A stretch of 64,000 nucleotides of DNA from a virus (lineage: Duplodnaviria > Heunggongvirae > Uroviricota > Caudoviricetes): the IMG/VR virus record IMGVR_UViG_2718218139_000001. One strand, written 5' to 3'. Shown here piece by piece: positions 17,797-64,000 of this stretch (positions are counted from its first letter, which is position 1; every line of letters starts with the position of its first letter). Made by a program: the position numbers and the translations under genes. The notes beneath the pieces were generated by a model. It saw only the letters and a program-made list of their open reading frames with translations, was not told the origin of the DNA and ran no database searches.

Positions 17797-17989
17797 GTAT
17801 TTTTAAGTCACGAATGCTATCTTTTCGCATCATATTGACCTTTTAATCGTTCAGGCTTATAGTTCCGCCGTCGTAGCAAATTCTGCGACCAGGTTTGACA
17901 GCCTGAATGATTGTGCGGACAACCGCAGATTTCCGATATTGCGGTATTTTTGTGTCCGTTAAACCGCGTTACGCCCAAATTATGGTGGG

Positions 17990-18100
17990 GCGTGATGGGG
18001 AGGCTTCGGCCTGCTGGTTTCACAATCGCCAGTCTGTCAACCCTGTCACGTCCTGCCACCTGTTTGACAGCGGGTAGCAGGTTGTTAAACCTGATTGTGA
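17990..18100 (+). ncRNA. c4-like antisense regulatory RNA region (approximate)
   Basis: structured region between operator and icd with repeated GTTTGACAGC/TGTCAACC elements and long-range pairing TCACAATC/GATTGTGA; position as in P1 immI; boundaries not determined. Confidence 0.25.
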
Positions 18101-19536: not shown

Positions 19537-20337
19537 ATGCAACAAACATTCAATGCGGATATGAATATATCAAACCTTCATCAAAATGTCGATCCTTCAA
19601 CCACTCTGCCTGTTATTTGTGGTGTTGAAATTACGACCGACCGCGCTGGCCGTTACAACCTTAATGCTCTACACAGAGCGAGCGGACTCGGTGCCCATAA
19701 AGCGCCAGCTCAATGGCTAAGAACGCTGTCAGCCAAACAGCTCATCGAAGAGCTTGAAAAAGAAACTATGCAGAATTGCATAGTTTCGTTCGAAGGCCGT
19801 GGCGGCGGCACTTTTGCCCATGAATTGCTCGCAGTGGAGTACGCAGGCTGGATTTCTCCCGCGTTTCGGCTGAAGGTAAACCAGACATTTATCGACTATC
19901 GAGCCGGAAGATTACAACCTGCTATTCCGAAGAGCCTCCCAGAAGCTCTCCGTTTGGCTGCTGACCTGGCAGAGCAAAAGCAACGGCTGGAGCAAAAAAT
20001 GCTGATGGATGCACCTAAAGTCGAATTCGCCGAACGCGTTGCTACCGCCAGCGGGGTTCTAATCGGCAACTATGCCAAAGTGCTCGGCCTGGGCCAAAAC
20101 TATCTCTTCACCTGGTTGCGTGATAACGGAATTCTGATCGCAACCGGTGAACGCAGGAACGTCCCCAAACAAGAATACATATCCCGTGGGTATTTCACCC
20201 TTAAAGAAACCGTGATCGATACAAGCAATGGAAGCAGGATTTCTTTCACGACTCGTATAACCGGCAAAGGTCAGCAGTGGCTGATGAAGCGATTGCTTGA
20301 TGCTGGTGTGCTGGTACCTGTCGCGGCAACGCGCTAA
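19537..20337 (+). CDS. kilA: KilA (KilA-N plus KilAC domains)
   Basis: 266 aa; N-terminal KilA-N-like block, C-terminal KilAC block paralogous to ant. Confidence 0.6.
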   Translation: MQQTFNADMNISNLHQNVDPSTTLPVICGVEITTDRAGRYNLNALHRASGLGAHKAPAQWLRTLSAKQLIEELEKETMQNCIVSFEGRGGGTFAHELLAVEYAGWISPAFRLKVNQTFIDYRAGRLQPAIPKSLPEALRLAADLAEQKQRLEQKMLMDAPKVEFAERVATASGVLIGNYAKVLGLGQNYLFTWLRDNGILIATGERRNVPKQEYISRGYFTLKETVIDTSNGSRISFTTRITGKGQQWLMKRLLDAGVLVPVAATR

Positions 20338-20366: not shown

Positions 20367-21212
20367 ATGCTGGCTAAAGTCACTTTCCTGAGCTGTATAA
20401 CGATGAGCGATTTTACTTTTTCTGGCTATGAATTGGCCTGCTTTGTAACACACTCCGGTCTATCCCGTAGCGCCGGGCATATCCTGTCGCAATGTGCAAA
20501 TCTCGCGGCAACAACCAGTGAATACTTCATTCACAAGCCTCACCGCCTGATCGCGGCAGAAACTGGTTATAGCCAATCAACCGTCGTTCGTGCATTCCGT
20601 GAAGCTGTAAACAAAGGAATTCTGTCTGTAGAGATTGTTATCGGCGATCACCGTGAACGTCGCGCTAACCTGTACCGGTTTACACCATCCTTTTTGGCCT
20701 TCGCACAACAAGCCAAAAATGCGCTGATTGAAAGCAAATTAAAGATCTCTTCAGCGGCAACCAAGGTTAAAGCTGTTCTCGCTAAGACATTGGCTTTATT
20801 TAATTTTTTATCCACACCCCCATGTCAAAATGATACCCCCTCCCCCTGTCAGGATGACGTGGCAATAAAGAATAAGAAGTCACAAGTTAAAAAAACAAAA
20901 AGATCAGTTTCCGGCGGTGCCGGAACGACCAGACTCAAAAAATTGACTTCATGGATCGCTGAGGCAAAAGCAAAGGCTGACAATCTGCGGTTATCCAAAA
21001 AACGCGCTCAAAAACATGAGTTCAAGCAGAAGGTAGAGGCGGCAGCGCGGAAATATGCTTACCTGAAGAACAAGCGTTCTCCTGATATTGGCGGGGTATC
21101 AAACTTCGATAATCTGCCGCATTGCATGACGGTAAACGAAGCTCTTAATGCGGTTTTAGCCAAAAATAAAGATAACGAACAATGGGGTATACCGGCAGGA
21201 TTCAGAGGGTGA
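20367..21212 (+). CDS. repL: lytic replication initiator RepL-like
   Basis: 281 aa immediately after kilA as in P1 lytic replicon; HTH-like segment. Confidence 0.5.
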   Translation: MLAKVTFLSCITMSDFTFSGYELACFVTHSGLSRSAGHILSQCANLAATTSEYFIHKPHRLIAAETGYSQSTVVRAFREAVNKGILSVEIVIGDHRERRANLYRFTPSFLAFAQQAKNALIESKLKISSAATKVKAVLAKTLALFNFLSTPPCQNDTPSPCQDDVAIKNKKSQVKKTKRSVSGGAGTTRLKKLTSWIAEAKAKADNLRLSKKRAQKHEFKQKVEAAARKYAYLKNKRSPDIGGVSNFDNLPHCMTVNEALNAVLAKNKDNEQWGIPAGFRG

Positions 21213-21262
21213 TAGATTGCTCTAATCTGGAGTCACCTGGCGTTTTCAGTTTGAGGTCGGAG

Positions 21263-21508
21263 ATGCAATCTGATTTTTTACAGTTAGCGATCGCTTTTGC
21301 AGGATATGTTTGTATTGGCTTCTGTATATACATGTTCAGCCGAAAAATGCTTGTCGATATCGACCGCAAAGAACAAGCAGAGGAGATCTTAGTATGGATT
21401 TTCTTTGGCGCGGTCTGGCCATTAGGGATCATGTTTGCTGCAACATTTCTTCTGATGTGGATATTCACCCTTCCAGGTGATTTCTATAGAAAAAAAGCCA
21501 GACATTGA
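21263..21508 (+). CDS. small membrane protein
   Basis: ORF track 21182-21508, start placed at ATG 21263 after GAGGTCGGAG; two hydrophobic helices. Confidence 0.4.
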   Translation: MQSDFLQLAIAFAGYVCIGFCIYMFSRKMLVDIDRKEQAEEILVWIFFGAVWPLGIMFAATFLLMWIFTLPGDFYRKKARH

Positions 21509-21631
21509 TACAATCGTTGCGGGTGCTTGAGGCTATCTGCTTCAGGCATTACCCGAAAAGCAGATAGAAGAAAGCCCCAGATAACATTACGCGTCCTGCA
21601 AGACGCTTAACATTAATCTGAGGCCATATCT

Positions 21632-21838
21632 ATGCTTAGCATACGTAGATTAGCCTCTTACCGACCAAAAGGTCAAGGAGAAGCAGGCTATGAAGCAGCA
21701 AAAAGCGATGTTAATCGCTCTGATCGTCATCTGTTTAACCGTCATTGTGACGGCACTGGTAACGAGGAAAGACCTCTGCGAGGTACGAATCCGAACCGGC
21801 CAGACGGAGGTCACTGTCTTCACAGCCTACGAATCTGA
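21632..21838 (+). CDS. mok-like overlapping reading frame of hok locus
   Basis: 68-aa ORF in another frame covering the hok-like ORF, as in hok/mok arrangement. Confidence 0.35.
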   Translation: MLSIRRLASYRPKGQGEAGYEAAKSDVNRSDRHLFNRHCDGTGNEERPLRGTNPNRPDGGHCLHSLRI

Positions 21839-21845
21839 AAGGTAA
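21690..21845 (+). CDS. hok: Hok/Gef-family type I toxin
   Basis: 51 aa MKQQKAMLIALIVICLTVIVTALVTRKDLCEVRIRTGQTEVTVFTAYESER; matches Hok core LTRKSLCEIR..AAFMAYES; below ORF-track size cutoff. Confidence 0.8.
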   Translation: MKQQKAMLIALIVICLTVIVTALVTRKDLCEVRIRTGQTEVTVFTAYESER

Positions 21846-21919
21846 GAGACCTGGTGTGGAGAGATCCCCGCCACTCTTAGTGTGTCAGGTATCCTCAATG
21901 CACCCTTTCATCTCCAAAT

Positions 21920-21945
21920 AAAAAAGCTCCCGAAGGAGCTTTAAA
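21920..21945. terminator. bidirectional rho-independent terminator
   Basis: AAAAAGCTCC-CGAA-GGAGCTTTAAAA between convergent genes. Confidence 0.7.
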
Positions 21946-21961
21946 ATACAAGGGATGACTC

Positions 21962-22471
21962 TTAATCCCACTCAATCCAGTTGTAGACGATACGAAGTGA
22001 CGGGCGCACAGCGGCAGTCACATCTTCGGTACTAAAGTCGATTGCATCACTGTAGATTTTGCAGTCCAACATTTCAATTGTTGTAGCAGCTTTTGTCACA
22101 GCGTTAACCCCGGAAGATTTGGATTCAGGGGTAGCAGCCATCGTGATATCAACATAGTCCTTCGCCGCAATGCGATCCTTGATGAACTGAAGAATATCGC
22201 CTTCGATAGTCTCCACGCACTGGACCTGGATTTCCCCAGAGTTTCGAATTGGTCCGTGCTGGTTGAACTTCACACCATTCGGACCATAGTCCTCCACATC
22301 CTCGCGGGTCATTTCAGGAATTTGCGACGTGCGAACCAGTACGCTGATATCTTCATGGCCTGCAAAAGTGAGCTGGAATTCAGAAGATACCAGTCGTTCG
22401 CCTTTGGCCGCGTTGGCAGTATAGCGGCCCTTAATAAATTTACGGTTTCCCTTAGTGTTATTGTGCCCCAT
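21962..22471 (-). CDS. late structural protein, tail tube-like
   Basis: ORF track 169 aa, last gene of late operon. Confidence 0.4.
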   Translation of the reverse strand: MGHNNTKGNRKFIKGRYTANAAKGERLVSSEFQLTFAGHEDISVLVRTSQIPEMTREDVEDYGPNGVKFNQHGPIRNSGEIQVQCVETIEGDILQFIKDRIAAKDYVDITMAATPESKSSGVNAVTKAATTIEMLDCKIYSDAIDFSTEDVTAAVRPSLRIVYNWIEWD

Positions 22472-37944: not shown

Positions 37945-38087
37945 GATGAAGTGCAGCTCTTTGAAGCAACCAGAAGATAAGCATCTGGCTTCACAACATA
38001 AACCGCAGGAACGACCAATAAACGGTAGTCCGTATGGAGAACACCCCGTTGAGGAAGAGGCCTGGCCGGAACCGTAACCGGCACTAC

Positions 38088-38176
38088 AACGTTGAGAACA
38101 CTGGCGTAACGGGGTCATATCCCAATCTACGAATAAATGTTGCGTTGCAGCGTGACAACCAGTGTTCTCAACATTG
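38088..38176 (+). other. long hairpin presenting conserved loop motif TAACGGGGTCATATCCCAATCTAC
   Basis: 17-bp stem AACGTTGAGAACACTGG / CCAGTGTTCTCAACATTG; motif repeated at 38386. Confidence 0.4.
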
Positions 38177-38370
38177 TGGTGAATGCACAGGCTGATGTGC
38201 CGCAACTACAGTAGTGCGCGCTTTGCGGGGCTTGCTACAACCCTGTGTCGGAGTTCAGCACCGACCATCACAGTTTGATTCTCTGGCATGAGCATAACGC
38301 TGAAATAAGTCCAGTCTGGTGCGGCCCGATCACCCGCCGTTAGCTCCACGAAACGGAGCACGTAACAGGT

Positions 38371-38430
38371 AAGAGCATTCTCCTGTAACGGGTTCATATC
38401 CCAATCTACAGGTCCACCAGGAATGCTCTT
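38371..38430 (+). other. second hairpin presenting the same loop motif
   Basis: stem AAGAGCATTCTCCTG / CAGGAATGCTCTT around TAACGGGTTCATATCCCAATCTAC. Confidence 0.4.
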
Positions 38431-38588
38431 TCCGTTGCGGTGAATGCGGCTAAGCGCACGCGGAACAGTTAAAACAATCCTCCTTAATGGTTAAACATTC
38501 CGGCGTTAATTGTTAACTGGTTAACGTCACCGGGAGGCACTCGGCACCGCAATCTAATAAATATGTCACTTTTATTGAGGGATAACCA

Positions 38589-39023
38589 ATGTTCGGTAAA
38601 TTGTTCGGCAAGAAAGTCGCTTCTGCAAAAGTAGAGCTGAAAAAAGTTGAGAATCGCGATCTGATGGAGGCCATCATCGGTGGCTGTTTGTTGGTGTCTG
38701 CCGCTGATGGTGAAATCGAAAAAGAAGAAACAGCGAAACTTGATCAGCTTGTCCGCTCTAATCCGCGTCTTAGTCATTTTGGTAACGAAATTACTGCAAC
38801 AATTACCCGCTTTACCGAGCAACTGGAAGCTGGCTTCCGTGTTGGTCGCATGAATATCCTTCGCGAAATTGAAGATATCAAAAACGATCCAAAAGAAGCG
38901 GAAGAAGTATTCGTTAACATGCTGACAATTGCAGAAGCGGACGGTGAAATCGAGCCAGCAGAACACAAAGTACTGGAAGAAGTAGGCCGTCGTTTAGGTC
39001 TTCGTGTGGAAGATTATCTGTAA
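38589..39023 (+). CDS. tciA: TerB-like tellurite-resistance protein
   Basis: 144 aa; two TerB-type repeats ..AADGEIEKEE.. and ..EADGEIEPAE.. Confidence 0.7.
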   Translation: MFGKLFGKKVASAKVELKKVENRDLMEAIIGGCLLVSAADGEIEKEETAKLDQLVRSNPRLSHFGNEITATITRFTEQLEAGFRVGRMNILREIEDIKNDPKEAEEVFVNMLTIAEADGEIEPAEHKVLEEVGRRLGLRVEDYL

Positions 39024-39187
39024 TGGCAAGCAAGGCACGTATCGCAATCGCCATTGGTTTTCTCTTGCTGTCCGTGCTGGTGGATTTCACCAGCACAATC
39101 CTGTCAGTTTTATCGGACGGGGCGTTGGTGGCAGTAGCTGTAACATTGGTATGGCCGATATTAAAAACAGCTTCTAAGGATCAGTGA
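39023..39187 (+). CDS. small membrane protein (tciB position)
   Basis: 54-aa ORF, start overlaps tciA stop (TAATG); hydrophobic. Confidence 0.4.
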   Translation: MASKARIAIAIGFLLLSVLVDFTSTILSVLSDGALVAVAVTLVWPILKTASKDQ

Positions 39188-39294
39188 TGGGCTTCTGGGA
39201 TTTTGCTGACAAGCATCCAATTGTTCTCGTTGTCATTGCTGGCATAGTTGTAGGCGGTATTGCTGGCGTCATAGAAGCACTCAGGAAACAGTAA
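39187..39294 (+). CDS. small membrane protein (tciC position)
   Basis: 35-aa ORF, ATGA overlap with previous ORF; single hydrophobic helix. Confidence 0.35.
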   Translation: MGFWDFADKHPIVLVVIAGIVVGGIAGVIEALRKQ

Positions 39295-39297
39295 TCC

Positions 39298-39373
39298 GGC
39301 CCTTTAGCTCAGTGGTTAGAGCTGGCGACTCATAATCGCACGGTCACCGGTTCAAGTCCGGTAGGGGCCACCA
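39298..39373 (+). tRNA. tRNA-Ile2 (CAT anticodon, lysidine type)
   Basis: near-identity of anticodon arm GGCGACTCATAATCGC and overall sequence to E. coli ileX as recalled; CCA encoded. Confidence 0.75.
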
Positions 39374-45215: not shown

Positions 45216-46433
45216 TTATCCTTTCCGTTTACGGGCTTCGTTAATTTGTGTCTCAAGAATGCTTCGCGCCTGCGCAGTGGCAGCGGCCTTGTCCATTCCC
45301 TGACTCATGAAAAACTTTATGAGGTTGTTCGCCTGCGTTTGCAGGGCTTTTTTGAGAGCGTCGGCTTCAGCGCGAGCCTGGGCTTCCCTCACCCGCGATG
45401 CTTTTAGTTCGGCATTCTTCCTGTTTGCCGTGGTGCGAGCTTTTTTTAACAACCGGCGAACGTTGTCCGTGGCGCTATCTTTTGCGCGTAGTTTTTTGCC
45501 TAATGCATCCTGAGATTTCAGATACAGCTCATACTCACGCGCAGCTTTAGCCTGATCCGTCGTTGTTGTCCGGTTGCGCGCGAGCGATTTAGCCAGTTCG
45601 CCTTTGAAATAGGTTGTTGTCTTCCGCTTGTCATCGCCGAAGGCTACCTGTTCAGCTGCTTTTTCCAGGGCAATAATGATGGCCTTGTGCCATGTGGGAG
45701 ACTGAAAACGCGTCATAGCGTGCAACACATGTTTGCAGGCCACACCAGTCAGATCAGGGTTGCGGATCTTGGGGAATGCATACTCTTTTGGCGGCGCGAC
45801 AGCATAGTTACCAGCCGTGGCCATATAACGATACCAGTATTGATGGCGTCCACAATCACAGTCGAAAGATACCCGGCCCTTGCAGAGATCGGCAGCGATT
45901 CGGGCTTTTTTCGCACCGTCTTCAGCAATTTCCTCAACGGCTTTATCCCATTCCTCAAATCGAATTCTGACACGGTGATGCTGGTGGACCGACTCATCCG
46001 AGGCATTAACAGATATCAATGCAAGGTTGTGTTTTAGCCCGAGGAATGTCGCGGCTTTGATCCCTGTGCCATCAGAAACTTTGTTGTTAGCGCGTTTTAT
46101 ATCAATGCTGGTGGACTGCGCCACCAGCTGAGCATAGGTAATGCCGGGTACCGTGCTCTTGAATTTGGTTTTATGAGCCTGCCTTGAGGTGTTGAAACTG
46201 CGTATATCTTCGGGCGTAAAGTAGGTGCCATCTTTCTTTTTCCCAAGGCTGAGGAATGCCTCAAGTTCGCGGTTACGCATCCCCATAATCCTTGGGGTGA
46301 GTGTACGTCGCGCGTTTCGCCGATTCTGACGCTGCTGTTTACGGATAAGATCGAAGACCTTGTTAAAGTCTTTTGCACTTAATCCATCAGTCTGATAGCG
46401 ACCAAGGTTGTCGCGAGCATATTCAGTTGGCAT
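45216..46433 (-). CDS. late protein with SWIM-type zinc finger and basic C-terminus
   Basis: ORF track 405 aa; CDCGRH..CKHVLH. Confidence 0.45.
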   Translation of the reverse strand: MPTEYARDNLGRYQTDGLSAKDFNKVFDLIRKQQRQNRRNARRTLTPRIMGMRNRELEAFLSLGKKKDGTYFTPEDIRSFNTSRQAHKTKFKSTVPGITYAQLVAQSTSIDIKRANNKVSDGTGIKAATFLGLKHNLALISVNASDESVHQHHRVRIRFEEWDKAVEEIAEDGAKKARIAADLCKGRVSFDCDCGRHQYWYRYMATAGNYAVAPPKEYAFPKIRNPDLTGVACKHVLHAMTRFQSPTWHKAIIIALEKAAEQVAFGDDKRKTTTYFKGELAKSLARNRTTTTDQAKAAREYELYLKSQDALGKKLRAKDSATDNVRRLLKKARTTANRKNAELKASRVREAQARAEADALKKALQTQANNLIKFFMSQGMDKAAATAQARSILETQINEARKRKG

Positions 46434-63508: not shown

Positions 63509-63730
63509 ATGCAATCCATTAACTTCCGTACCGCGCGCGGCAACCTTTCTGAAGTGCTCAACAATGTTGAAGCCGGGGAAGAGGTTGAAATCACCCGCAG
63601 AGGCCGTGAGCCAGCAGTAATTGTCAGCAAGGCTACTTTCGAAGCCTACAAAAAAGCGGCGCTGGATGCTGAATTTGCATCCCTGTTTGACACCCTGGAC
63701 TCCACCAACAAGGAACTGGTTAACCGATAA
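63509..63730 (+). CDS. phd: antitoxin Phd
   Basis: 73 aa [39 protein letters not shown].. as recalled for P1 Phd. Confidence 0.9.
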
Positions 63731-64000
63731 TGAGGCATATATCACCGGAAGAACTTATTGCGCTTCATGATGCGAATATAAGCCGCTACGGCGGCCTGCC
63801 TGGCATGTCAGATCCGGGCAGGGCAGAGGCCATTATCGGGAGAGTTCAGGCCAGAGTTGCCTACGAAGAGATCACCGACCTTTTCGAAGTCTCCGCCACC
63901 TACCTGGTGGCTACAGCGAGAGGGCATATATTCAATGATGCCAATAAGCGTACCGCGCTAAACAGCGCGCTGCTATTTCTACGCCGTAACGGGGTGCAGG
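63730..64000 (+). CDS. doc: toxin Doc (Fic-fold kinase), 3' end truncated by window edge
   Basis: [30 protein letters not shown]..; ATG overlaps phd stop; runs off window. Confidence 0.9.

Follow-up and report, generated by a model that had tools for sequence, protein, structure and literature searches.

The window analysed here, i.e. the whole stretch of 64,000 nt, was found to represent a P1-like phage-plasmid, with a hok gene located in the interval between repL and bplB. The landmarks of this region, together with the phd-doc genes at the end of the window, are as follows.

17978-18063: C4 RNA
19537-20337: kilA
20367-21212: repL
21216-21226, plus strand: retained left half of the C1 operator Op55/Orlf, ATTGCTCTAAT, identical to P1, with divergence following it
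21228-21919: cassette of 692 bp, in place of the ~1.8 kb rlfA-rlfB-pmgF segment of P1 and P7
21263-21508, plus strand: companion ORF encoding a small hydrophobic protein of 81 aa, the core of a 108-aa ORF at 21182-21508
21923-21942, minus strand: hairpin of the P1 backbone that serves as the bplB terminator, its T-tract being on the minus strand
21962-22471, minus strand: bplB
63509-63727: phd, complete
63730-64000: doc, of which the first 90 codons are present up to the window end

In the P1 and P7 references, Op55, rlfA, rlfB and pmgF are located between repL and bplB, and the similarity of both records to the window stops after repL and resumes at bplB. The suggestion in the initial annotation that the P1 reference has no hok-type module was borne out for this site by the absence of a megablast match and by the annotated repL-bplB interval, which contains rlfA-rlfB-pmgF instead. 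The left breakpoint of the exchange cuts Op55 (21216-21232), of which the 11 nt ATTGCTCTAAT are kept and the last 6 nt replaced; the right breakpoint is positioned at ~21919/21920, and the extent of the cassette, as well as that of the segment it replaces, follows from these two breakpoints. Nine C1 operator matches were identified in the window, the truncated Op55 being more than three mismatches from the C1 operator consensus, as is P1's own Op55.

The cassette was shown to contain the 81-aa hydrophobic ORF and the hok module, with homology to lambdoid hok loci extending from ~21507 to 21906. The companion ORF corresponds to phrog_3772 (E 4e-53) and yielded no Pfam, NCBIfam or PADLOC match; within the phage collection it is confined to P1-like phages, the homologue in SJ46 being 46% identical, and its 3' end supplies the -35 element of the hok promoter. 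The rlfA-rlfB-pmgF segment has been listed among eight hypervariable regions of P1-like elements (Zhang et al. 2022).

The proposal that this killing locus is located beside phd-doc is correct in that hok is present in addition to phd-doc; as the two are ~42 kb apart, however, hok cannot be described as physically adjacent. The Phd protein encoded in the window is 100% identical to that of P1. Four tRNA genes (Asn-GTT, Tyr-GTA, Thr-TGT and one with a CAT anticodon) were observed at 37611-39373, including an 87-nt tRNA-Tyr between the Asn and Thr genes (Rfam, 41.9 bits). The P1 reference presumably carries three tRNA genes (Asn, Thr and Ile-CAU), so the tRNA-Tyr may be an extra tRNA in the lineage of the window.

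Within the cassette and its right-hand border, the following elements of a hok/mok/sok locus were assigned.

21487-21514, plus strand: hok promoter, with -35 TAGAAA (21487-21492) and extended -10 TGaTACAAT (21506-21514)
21521-21945, plus strand: predicted full-length hok mRNA, with its start at ~21521 and an uncertain 3' end
21521-21695, plus strand: hok leader, matching the full Rfam model RF01794 ('sok'; 1-157)
21521-21532, plus strand: tac element at the mRNA 5' end, GGGUGCUUGAGG, paired with 21893-21905 in the full-length fold
21567-21640, minus strand: predicted Sok antisense RNA of ~74 nt, with its start at ~21640 and its end at ~21567, based on homology to sokW
21632-21838, plus strand: mok ORF of 68 aa, with Shine-Dalgarno GAGG (21620-21623) 8 nt upstream of the ATG at 21632
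21647-21676, minus strand: Sok promoter, with -35 TTGACC (21676-21671), an 18-nt spacer and -10 TAATCT (21652-21647)
21690-21845, plus strand: hok ORF encoding the 51-aa membrane toxin MKQQKAMLIALIVICLTVIVTALVTRKDLCEVRIRTGQTEVTVFTAYESER, with Shine-Dalgarno AAGGAG (21675-21680)
21852-21873, plus strand: 3' hairpin after the hok stop codon, the counterpart of the one at the 3' end of R1 hok mRNA
21893-21905, plus strand: fbi (fold-back inhibition) element, CCUCAAUGCACCC, paired with the mRNA 5' end

The 51-codon ORF at 21690-21845 was recovered with exactly the coordinates and the peptide sequence given in the initial annotation, and its placement in the Hok/Gef family was confirmed by a match to the whole of Pfam model PF01848 HOK_GEF (78.7 bits against a cut-off of 22 bits; E 2.4e-22; model positions 1-42 of 42) and to PHROG 251, 'MokW-like host killing' (110.7 bits). 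The peptide exhibits the characteristics of the Hok family, namely a length of ~50 aa, an N-terminal membrane helix and the TRK-LCE core, and shares 42% identity with R1 Hok in an alignment of 52 aa. Because these protein-level similarities coincide with an independent RF01794 match, the ORF cannot be regarded as a chance ORF. HokW is 92% identical to the Hok peptide of the window (four differences), and many plasmids carry the identical Hok sequence. The NCBIfam Hok models scored below their cut-offs for this peptide (49.5 versus 73 for the Hok subfamily model), and no PADLOC model was matched by it.

The mok ORF likewise proved to be exactly as first described, i.e. a longer ORF (21632-21838) that overlaps hok out of frame. 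It is in the +1 frame relative to hok, with its stop codon 7 nt before that of hok, and the predicted Sok RNA spans its Shine-Dalgarno sequence and ATG, as is characteristic of the mok frame in the hok/sok family. This termination just before the hok stop represents the classical R1-like arrangement. No Pfam match was obtained for Mok. Among the 68 unique loci compared in this study, the mok start is ATG in 66, and the frame is open for ~70 codons irrespective of its configuration. In 54 of the 68, including hokW, mok is in frame with hok, generating an extended Hok of 70-71 aa, which accounts for the many 70-aa 'Hok family toxin' entries in databases; in the remaining 14, i.e. the window, all P1-type copies, Rac and one R1-type locus, mok is out of frame and ends 4-7 nt before the hok stop. 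Within one close clade, this dimorphism was seen to correspond to a single-base indel in the leader, GGTCAAGG versus GG-CAAGG.

Upstream of these frames, the locus was found to reach further left than the initially reported range, with the hok promoter at 21487-21514 and the mRNA start at ~21521. In a promoter scan, the hok promoter scored 9 of 12 matches, with the TG of an extended -10, and its -10 element aligns with TAGAAT of hokW and Rac. The covariance-model search that had been proposed as a check on the locus returned RF01794 at 21521-21695 on the plus strand, with a score of 114.9 bits (E 2e-25) against a gathering score of 59. Although RF01794 is named 'sok antitoxin', the model describes the sense hok leader, its consensus ending at the hok AUG. 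Since the model is written in the sense orientation, the strand of the hit is that of hok and not that of Sok; a plus-strand hit is what is expected of a true locus and is by itself no proof of an antisense transcript.

The predicted fold of 21521-21910 (-147.5 kcal/mol, z = -6.3) is closed by tac-fbi pairing, a defining feature of the family, with 12 pairs and one bulge, whether the MFE or the centroid structure is considered. The tac-fbi duplex is predicted to have an energy of -20.6 kcal/mol, compared with -11.7 +/- 2.1 kcal/mol in shuffles of the 3' region, only 5 of 2000 of which were as good. When the RNA was truncated in silico at 21875, its 5' end (21521-21533) refolded with 21539-21554 into a local hairpin. 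Such 5' refolding has reportedly been described by the Gerdes laboratory for R1 hok mRNA.

Conservation of this structure was assessed by projecting the fold of the window onto the 68 unique loci, which comprise P1-type, lambdoid-prophage and two R1-type outgroup sequences. As the Hok protein search returned only close HokD/HokW-type proteins, the R1-type outgroups were fetched with the R1 Hok sequence, itself confirmed by search at 100%; two of the four outgroups obtained in this way were unusable, one having IS150 upstream and the other yielding no 5' element. With a structure taken from the window itself and sequences that are mostly close relatives, 93.5% of cells were paired, compared with ~40% with slid partners, and changes on both sides were observed in 27 pairs, compared with 5-8 in the slid controls; such values were reached in none of 500 shuffles. 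Across the 68 loci, pairing of the tac-fbi helix amounts to 98.2%, and the R1-type outgroups retain this helix with both sides changed (GGCGC/GCGCC versus GGGUGC/GCACCC), including a UA to CG replacement.

On the opposite strand, the candidate Sok RNA was delineated by aligning the region with sokW of phage 933W, which is annotated with a length of 71 nt. Its sequence is complementary to the ribosome-binding site and the start codon of mok, and is predicted to form a long hairpin (-33.2 kcal/mol, z = -5.7) with GGGGCUUUCUUC after it; five pairs of the Sok hairpin (helix 4 in the 68-locus alignment) were shown to carry compensatory changes. The initial annotation had been unable to place the Sok promoter, and the consensus promoter scan missed it as well, because its -10 element matches the consensus at only three of six positions. 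Alignment with sokW does place it, as TTGACC-18-TAATCT: the TAATCT of the window aligns exactly with the experimentally mutated sokW -10, TAACCT (primers YO-421/422), and its TTGACC is a better -35 element than that of sokW. Replacement of the sokW -10 abolished antitoxin activity and protection (PMC8621323). In view of the scan result, the promoter assignment is based on sokW homology and this mutagenesis. At the sequence level, a cis-antisense Sok gene with a promoter of its own is present in the window.

The stretch opposite the Sok 5' tail (21624-21646; columns ~165-190 of alignment A4) is by far the most variable part of a locus that is highly conserved elsewhere, and three loci (L030, L058 and L069) possess an altogether different Sok hairpin. 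Variability at this position would fit a diversification of Sok-hok specificity that avoids cross-talk among the several copies with which most E. coli genomes are equipped.

The 3' end of the module differs from that of its relatives. In most copies, the hairpin after the hok stop carries the motif GGGG-AGAGAT-CCCC, whereas the window has GTGTGG where GCGGGG is found elsewhere, two substitutions that weaken the stem and remove the GGGG half of the motif. GTGTGG is also present in the 100%-identical plasmids. In sister P1-type copies, this hairpin represents an insertion hot spot of IS186: in two of them (L012 and L021, both at ~1685), an IS4-family, IS421-type element, which we take to be IS186, is located directly after GGAGAGATCC, thereby cutting off fbi. 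The same 10-bp repeat has been reported for IS186B in pSvP1, and IS186 is likewise found downstream of gef/hokC in K-12.

A strong hairpin terminator had been proposed to follow hok. The hairpin at 21923-21942 does exist, but it was called as a terminator on the minus strand only and is identical in the P1 reference, where it is situated between bplB and pmgF. Being identical to the P1 backbone 3' of bplB, it lies outside the imported hok module; with its T-tract on the opposite strand, it was rejected as the terminator of the module and would be a weak terminator for hok at best. Most lambdoid hok copies have a terminator of their own, ACCCGCTTCGGCGGGTTTTT, immediately after fbi, whereas the P1-type copies do not, and this missing native terminator is the main structural difference from their relatives. 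As the native terminator is absent and the backbone hairpin has its T-run on the other strand, the point at which the hok mRNA ends is uncertain, and hence so are the folding kinetics of this mRNA.

To place the locus among known elements, its distribution was analysed in public records. A 481-bp portion is 99.8% identical in MH422554.1 and in MH445380/MH445381, and 98.8% identical over the same 481 bp in phages phi456 and Ro157c2YLVW. A 1,001-bp query that includes both cassette junctions was fully covered in 215 PLSDB plasmids (two of them 100% identical); as full-length repL is present in 506 PLSDB plasmids, the arrangement is found in 215/506 (~42%). Among 5,426 complete E. coli genomes, 198 were found to cover the same query in full, and 4,748 (87%) to contain related hok/sok DNA.

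The P1-type gene is named 'hokD: type I toxin-antitoxin system toxin HokD' by the NCBI pipeline. In MH422554.1, a 156-nt hok CDS (46278-46433; 2711-2866 in the extracted locus L001) is labelled 'MokW', whereas annotations of mok and Sok are missing; the hok locus of MH445380 and MH445381 bears no annotation at all. Apart from the listing of rlfA-rlfB-pmgF as hypervariable, our literature search yielded only the label 'antibacterial toxin' in Venturini et al. (2019), and found no paper naming or testing the locus as hok/sok in a P1-like element. The novelty implied by the initial annotation does not hold, given that the identical locus is hokD in hundreds of P1-like plasmids and 'MokW' in MH422554.1. 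The locus is ordinary and already known, because the same sequence occurs in hundreds of public plasmids, where it is routinely annotated as hokD.

All of the defining sequence-level features tested, i.e. the toxin family, mok, the antisense RNA with its promoter, the tac-fbi pairing and the Rfam leader, are present. Taken together, 21487-21945 constitutes a complete hok/mok/sok locus of the HokD/HokW lineage, i.e. that of lambdoid prophages, which is located at the hypervariable repL-bplB spot and probably functions in plasmid addiction. At the RNA level, the mechanism can be proposed with confidence by homology, and we infer its dynamics from R1 and hokW as paradigms. The hok mRNA, starting at ~21521, would be stable and closed by tac-fbi pairing, a form in which it would escape both translation and binding by Sok. 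Slow trimming from the 3' end would remove fbi, allowing the 5' end to refold locally and exposing the mok ribosome-binding site and the Sok target. The short, unstable Sok RNA would then pair across the mok Shine-Dalgarno sequence and start codon and block mok; coupled translation of hok would thereby be blocked as well, and the duplex would be marked for RNase III. Once the supply of Sok ends, the 51-aa Hok would be made and inserted in the inner membrane, and the cell would be killed or arrested.

Post-segregational killing, as a second addiction system alongside phd-doc, is likely to be the role of the locus, because a working hok/sok system on a unit-copy plasmid would necessarily kill plasmid-free segregants. 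As related hok/sok DNA is so widespread among complete E. coli genomes (4,748/5,426), a resident Sok could neutralise this killing in some hosts.

The same mechanism may instead have been selected for a role in the lytic cycle, in which induction would lead to loss of Sok, and Hok would permeabilise the membrane early and increase phage release. Such a role is compatible with plasmid addiction and is a serious, non-exclusive rival, because the locus is located just 3' of, and co-oriented with, the C1-repressed lytic replicon, hok being directly downstream of the kilA-repL operon; as the selected function we nevertheless regard it as possible rather than probable. The only experiments on this lineage, carried out with hokW-sokW as the closest characterised relative, revealed a role in phage release and not in maintenance: in Sp5, an Stx2 prophage, mitomycin C treatment led to the disappearance of sokW RNA, HokW was made in a RecA-dependent manner ~1 h before endolysin, and phage yield was halved without the locus (PMC8621323). 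Furthermore, phages isolated as particles (phi456 and Ro157c2YLVW) carry the locus. Conversely, the effect in Sp5 is only two-fold, P1 has a holin/endolysin timing system of its own, and the P1 and P7 references do without hok. A more speculative version, to which we assign a low probability, is that the P1-type hok/sok is wired to the lytic switch, instead of or besides plasmid loss. Induced read-through over the leader would occlude the convergent Sok promoter, so that Sok would fall and Hok would aid lysis early; the co-orientation with kilA-repL, the cutting of Op55 by the cassette junction and the missing native hok terminator would all fit such wiring. If true, occlusion by read-through would also offer an explanation of how sokW RNA is lost in induced Sp5.

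A function mainly in abortive infection or exclusion, whereby a lytic phage would stop host transcription, Sok would decay and Hok would kill the cell first, appears unlikely. R1 hok/sok on a high-copy plasmid lowered the plating efficiency and plaque size of T4, according to the account cited in PMC8621323, but this effect was modest and obtained at high copy, whereas the locus of the window resides on a unit-copy plasmid; moreover, PADLOC models were matched neither by Hok nor by the companion ORF. We deem it somewhat more unlikely still that the locus is a passenger, silent or neutralised owing to the missing native terminator, the less stable 3' hairpin and cross-reaction with Sok RNAs from the chromosome. 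The absent native terminator and the two substitutions in the 3' hairpin are in keeping with this explanation, as are the IS186 insertions in that hairpin of sister copies, which resemble the fate of gef/hokC in K-12, and the finding that 87% of complete E. coli genomes contain related hok DNA. In E. coli K-12, the majority of the chromosomal hok loci have no phenotype. Against a passenger status, the coding and regulatory elements are all intact, Hok is identical across many plasmids, and the arrangement is present in ~42% of repL-bearing plasmids; in addition, other loci have a different sequence opposite the Sok 5' tail, making complete cross-protection less likely.

A large share of natural P1-like phage-plasmids (~42% of the repL-bearing PLSDB plasmids) carry a second, RNA-controlled killer module, a finding that corrects the impression given by the P1 reference genome, in which rlfA-rlfB-pmgF occupies the place of this module. 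This has a bearing on the persistence and stability of elements that carry resistance genes, as well as on the dispensability of the P1 'backbone', given that pmgF, rlfA and rlfB are absent here. It also bears on annotation, as the RNA parts of the locus (Sok, mok and fbi) are unannotated in the records.

Among characterised systems, hokW-mokW-sokW of 933W and Sakai prophage 5 exhibits 87.6% DNA identity to the window from the hok promoter -10 to fbi, with the same layout of the leader, the Sok gene, the Sok promoter position and fbi. HokW has been established experimentally as a type I toxin, with sokW as its antitoxin (PMC8621323). In hokW, mok is in frame and yields a 70-aa extended Hok, whereas a 1-nt difference places the 68-aa mok of the window out of frame; the Sok 5'-tail region, the flanks and the 3' end all differ as well, and hokW-sokW is part of an integrated lambdoid prophage rather than a plasmid prophage. 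The best DNA match outside P1-like elements is hok/mok of Rac (MN652886; 91%), grouped here with the hokD/relF-type loci of E. coli prophages, which shares with the window the out-of-frame 68-aa mok, the GGTCAAGG leader variant and the Sok promoter sequence, but differs in the upstream -35 region; Rac-type copies also keep the terminator ACCCGCTTCGGCGGGTTTTT after fbi that P1-type copies do not have.

The R1 hok/sok (parB) locus, for which post-segregational killing is experimentally established, shares the Hok peptide, the out-of-frame mok, the tac-fbi closure and the Rfam leader model with the window, although it is distant in sequence and is encoded by a conjugative IncFII plasmid. The type II system phd-doc is encoded by the same element as the hok/sok locus of the window and has the same presumed outcome, in that segregants without the plasmid die or are arrested. 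It consists of a protein antitoxin and its toxin, is unrelated to hok/sok in sequence or mechanism, and is conserved in all P1-like elements, whereas hok/sok is a feature of a subset of them.
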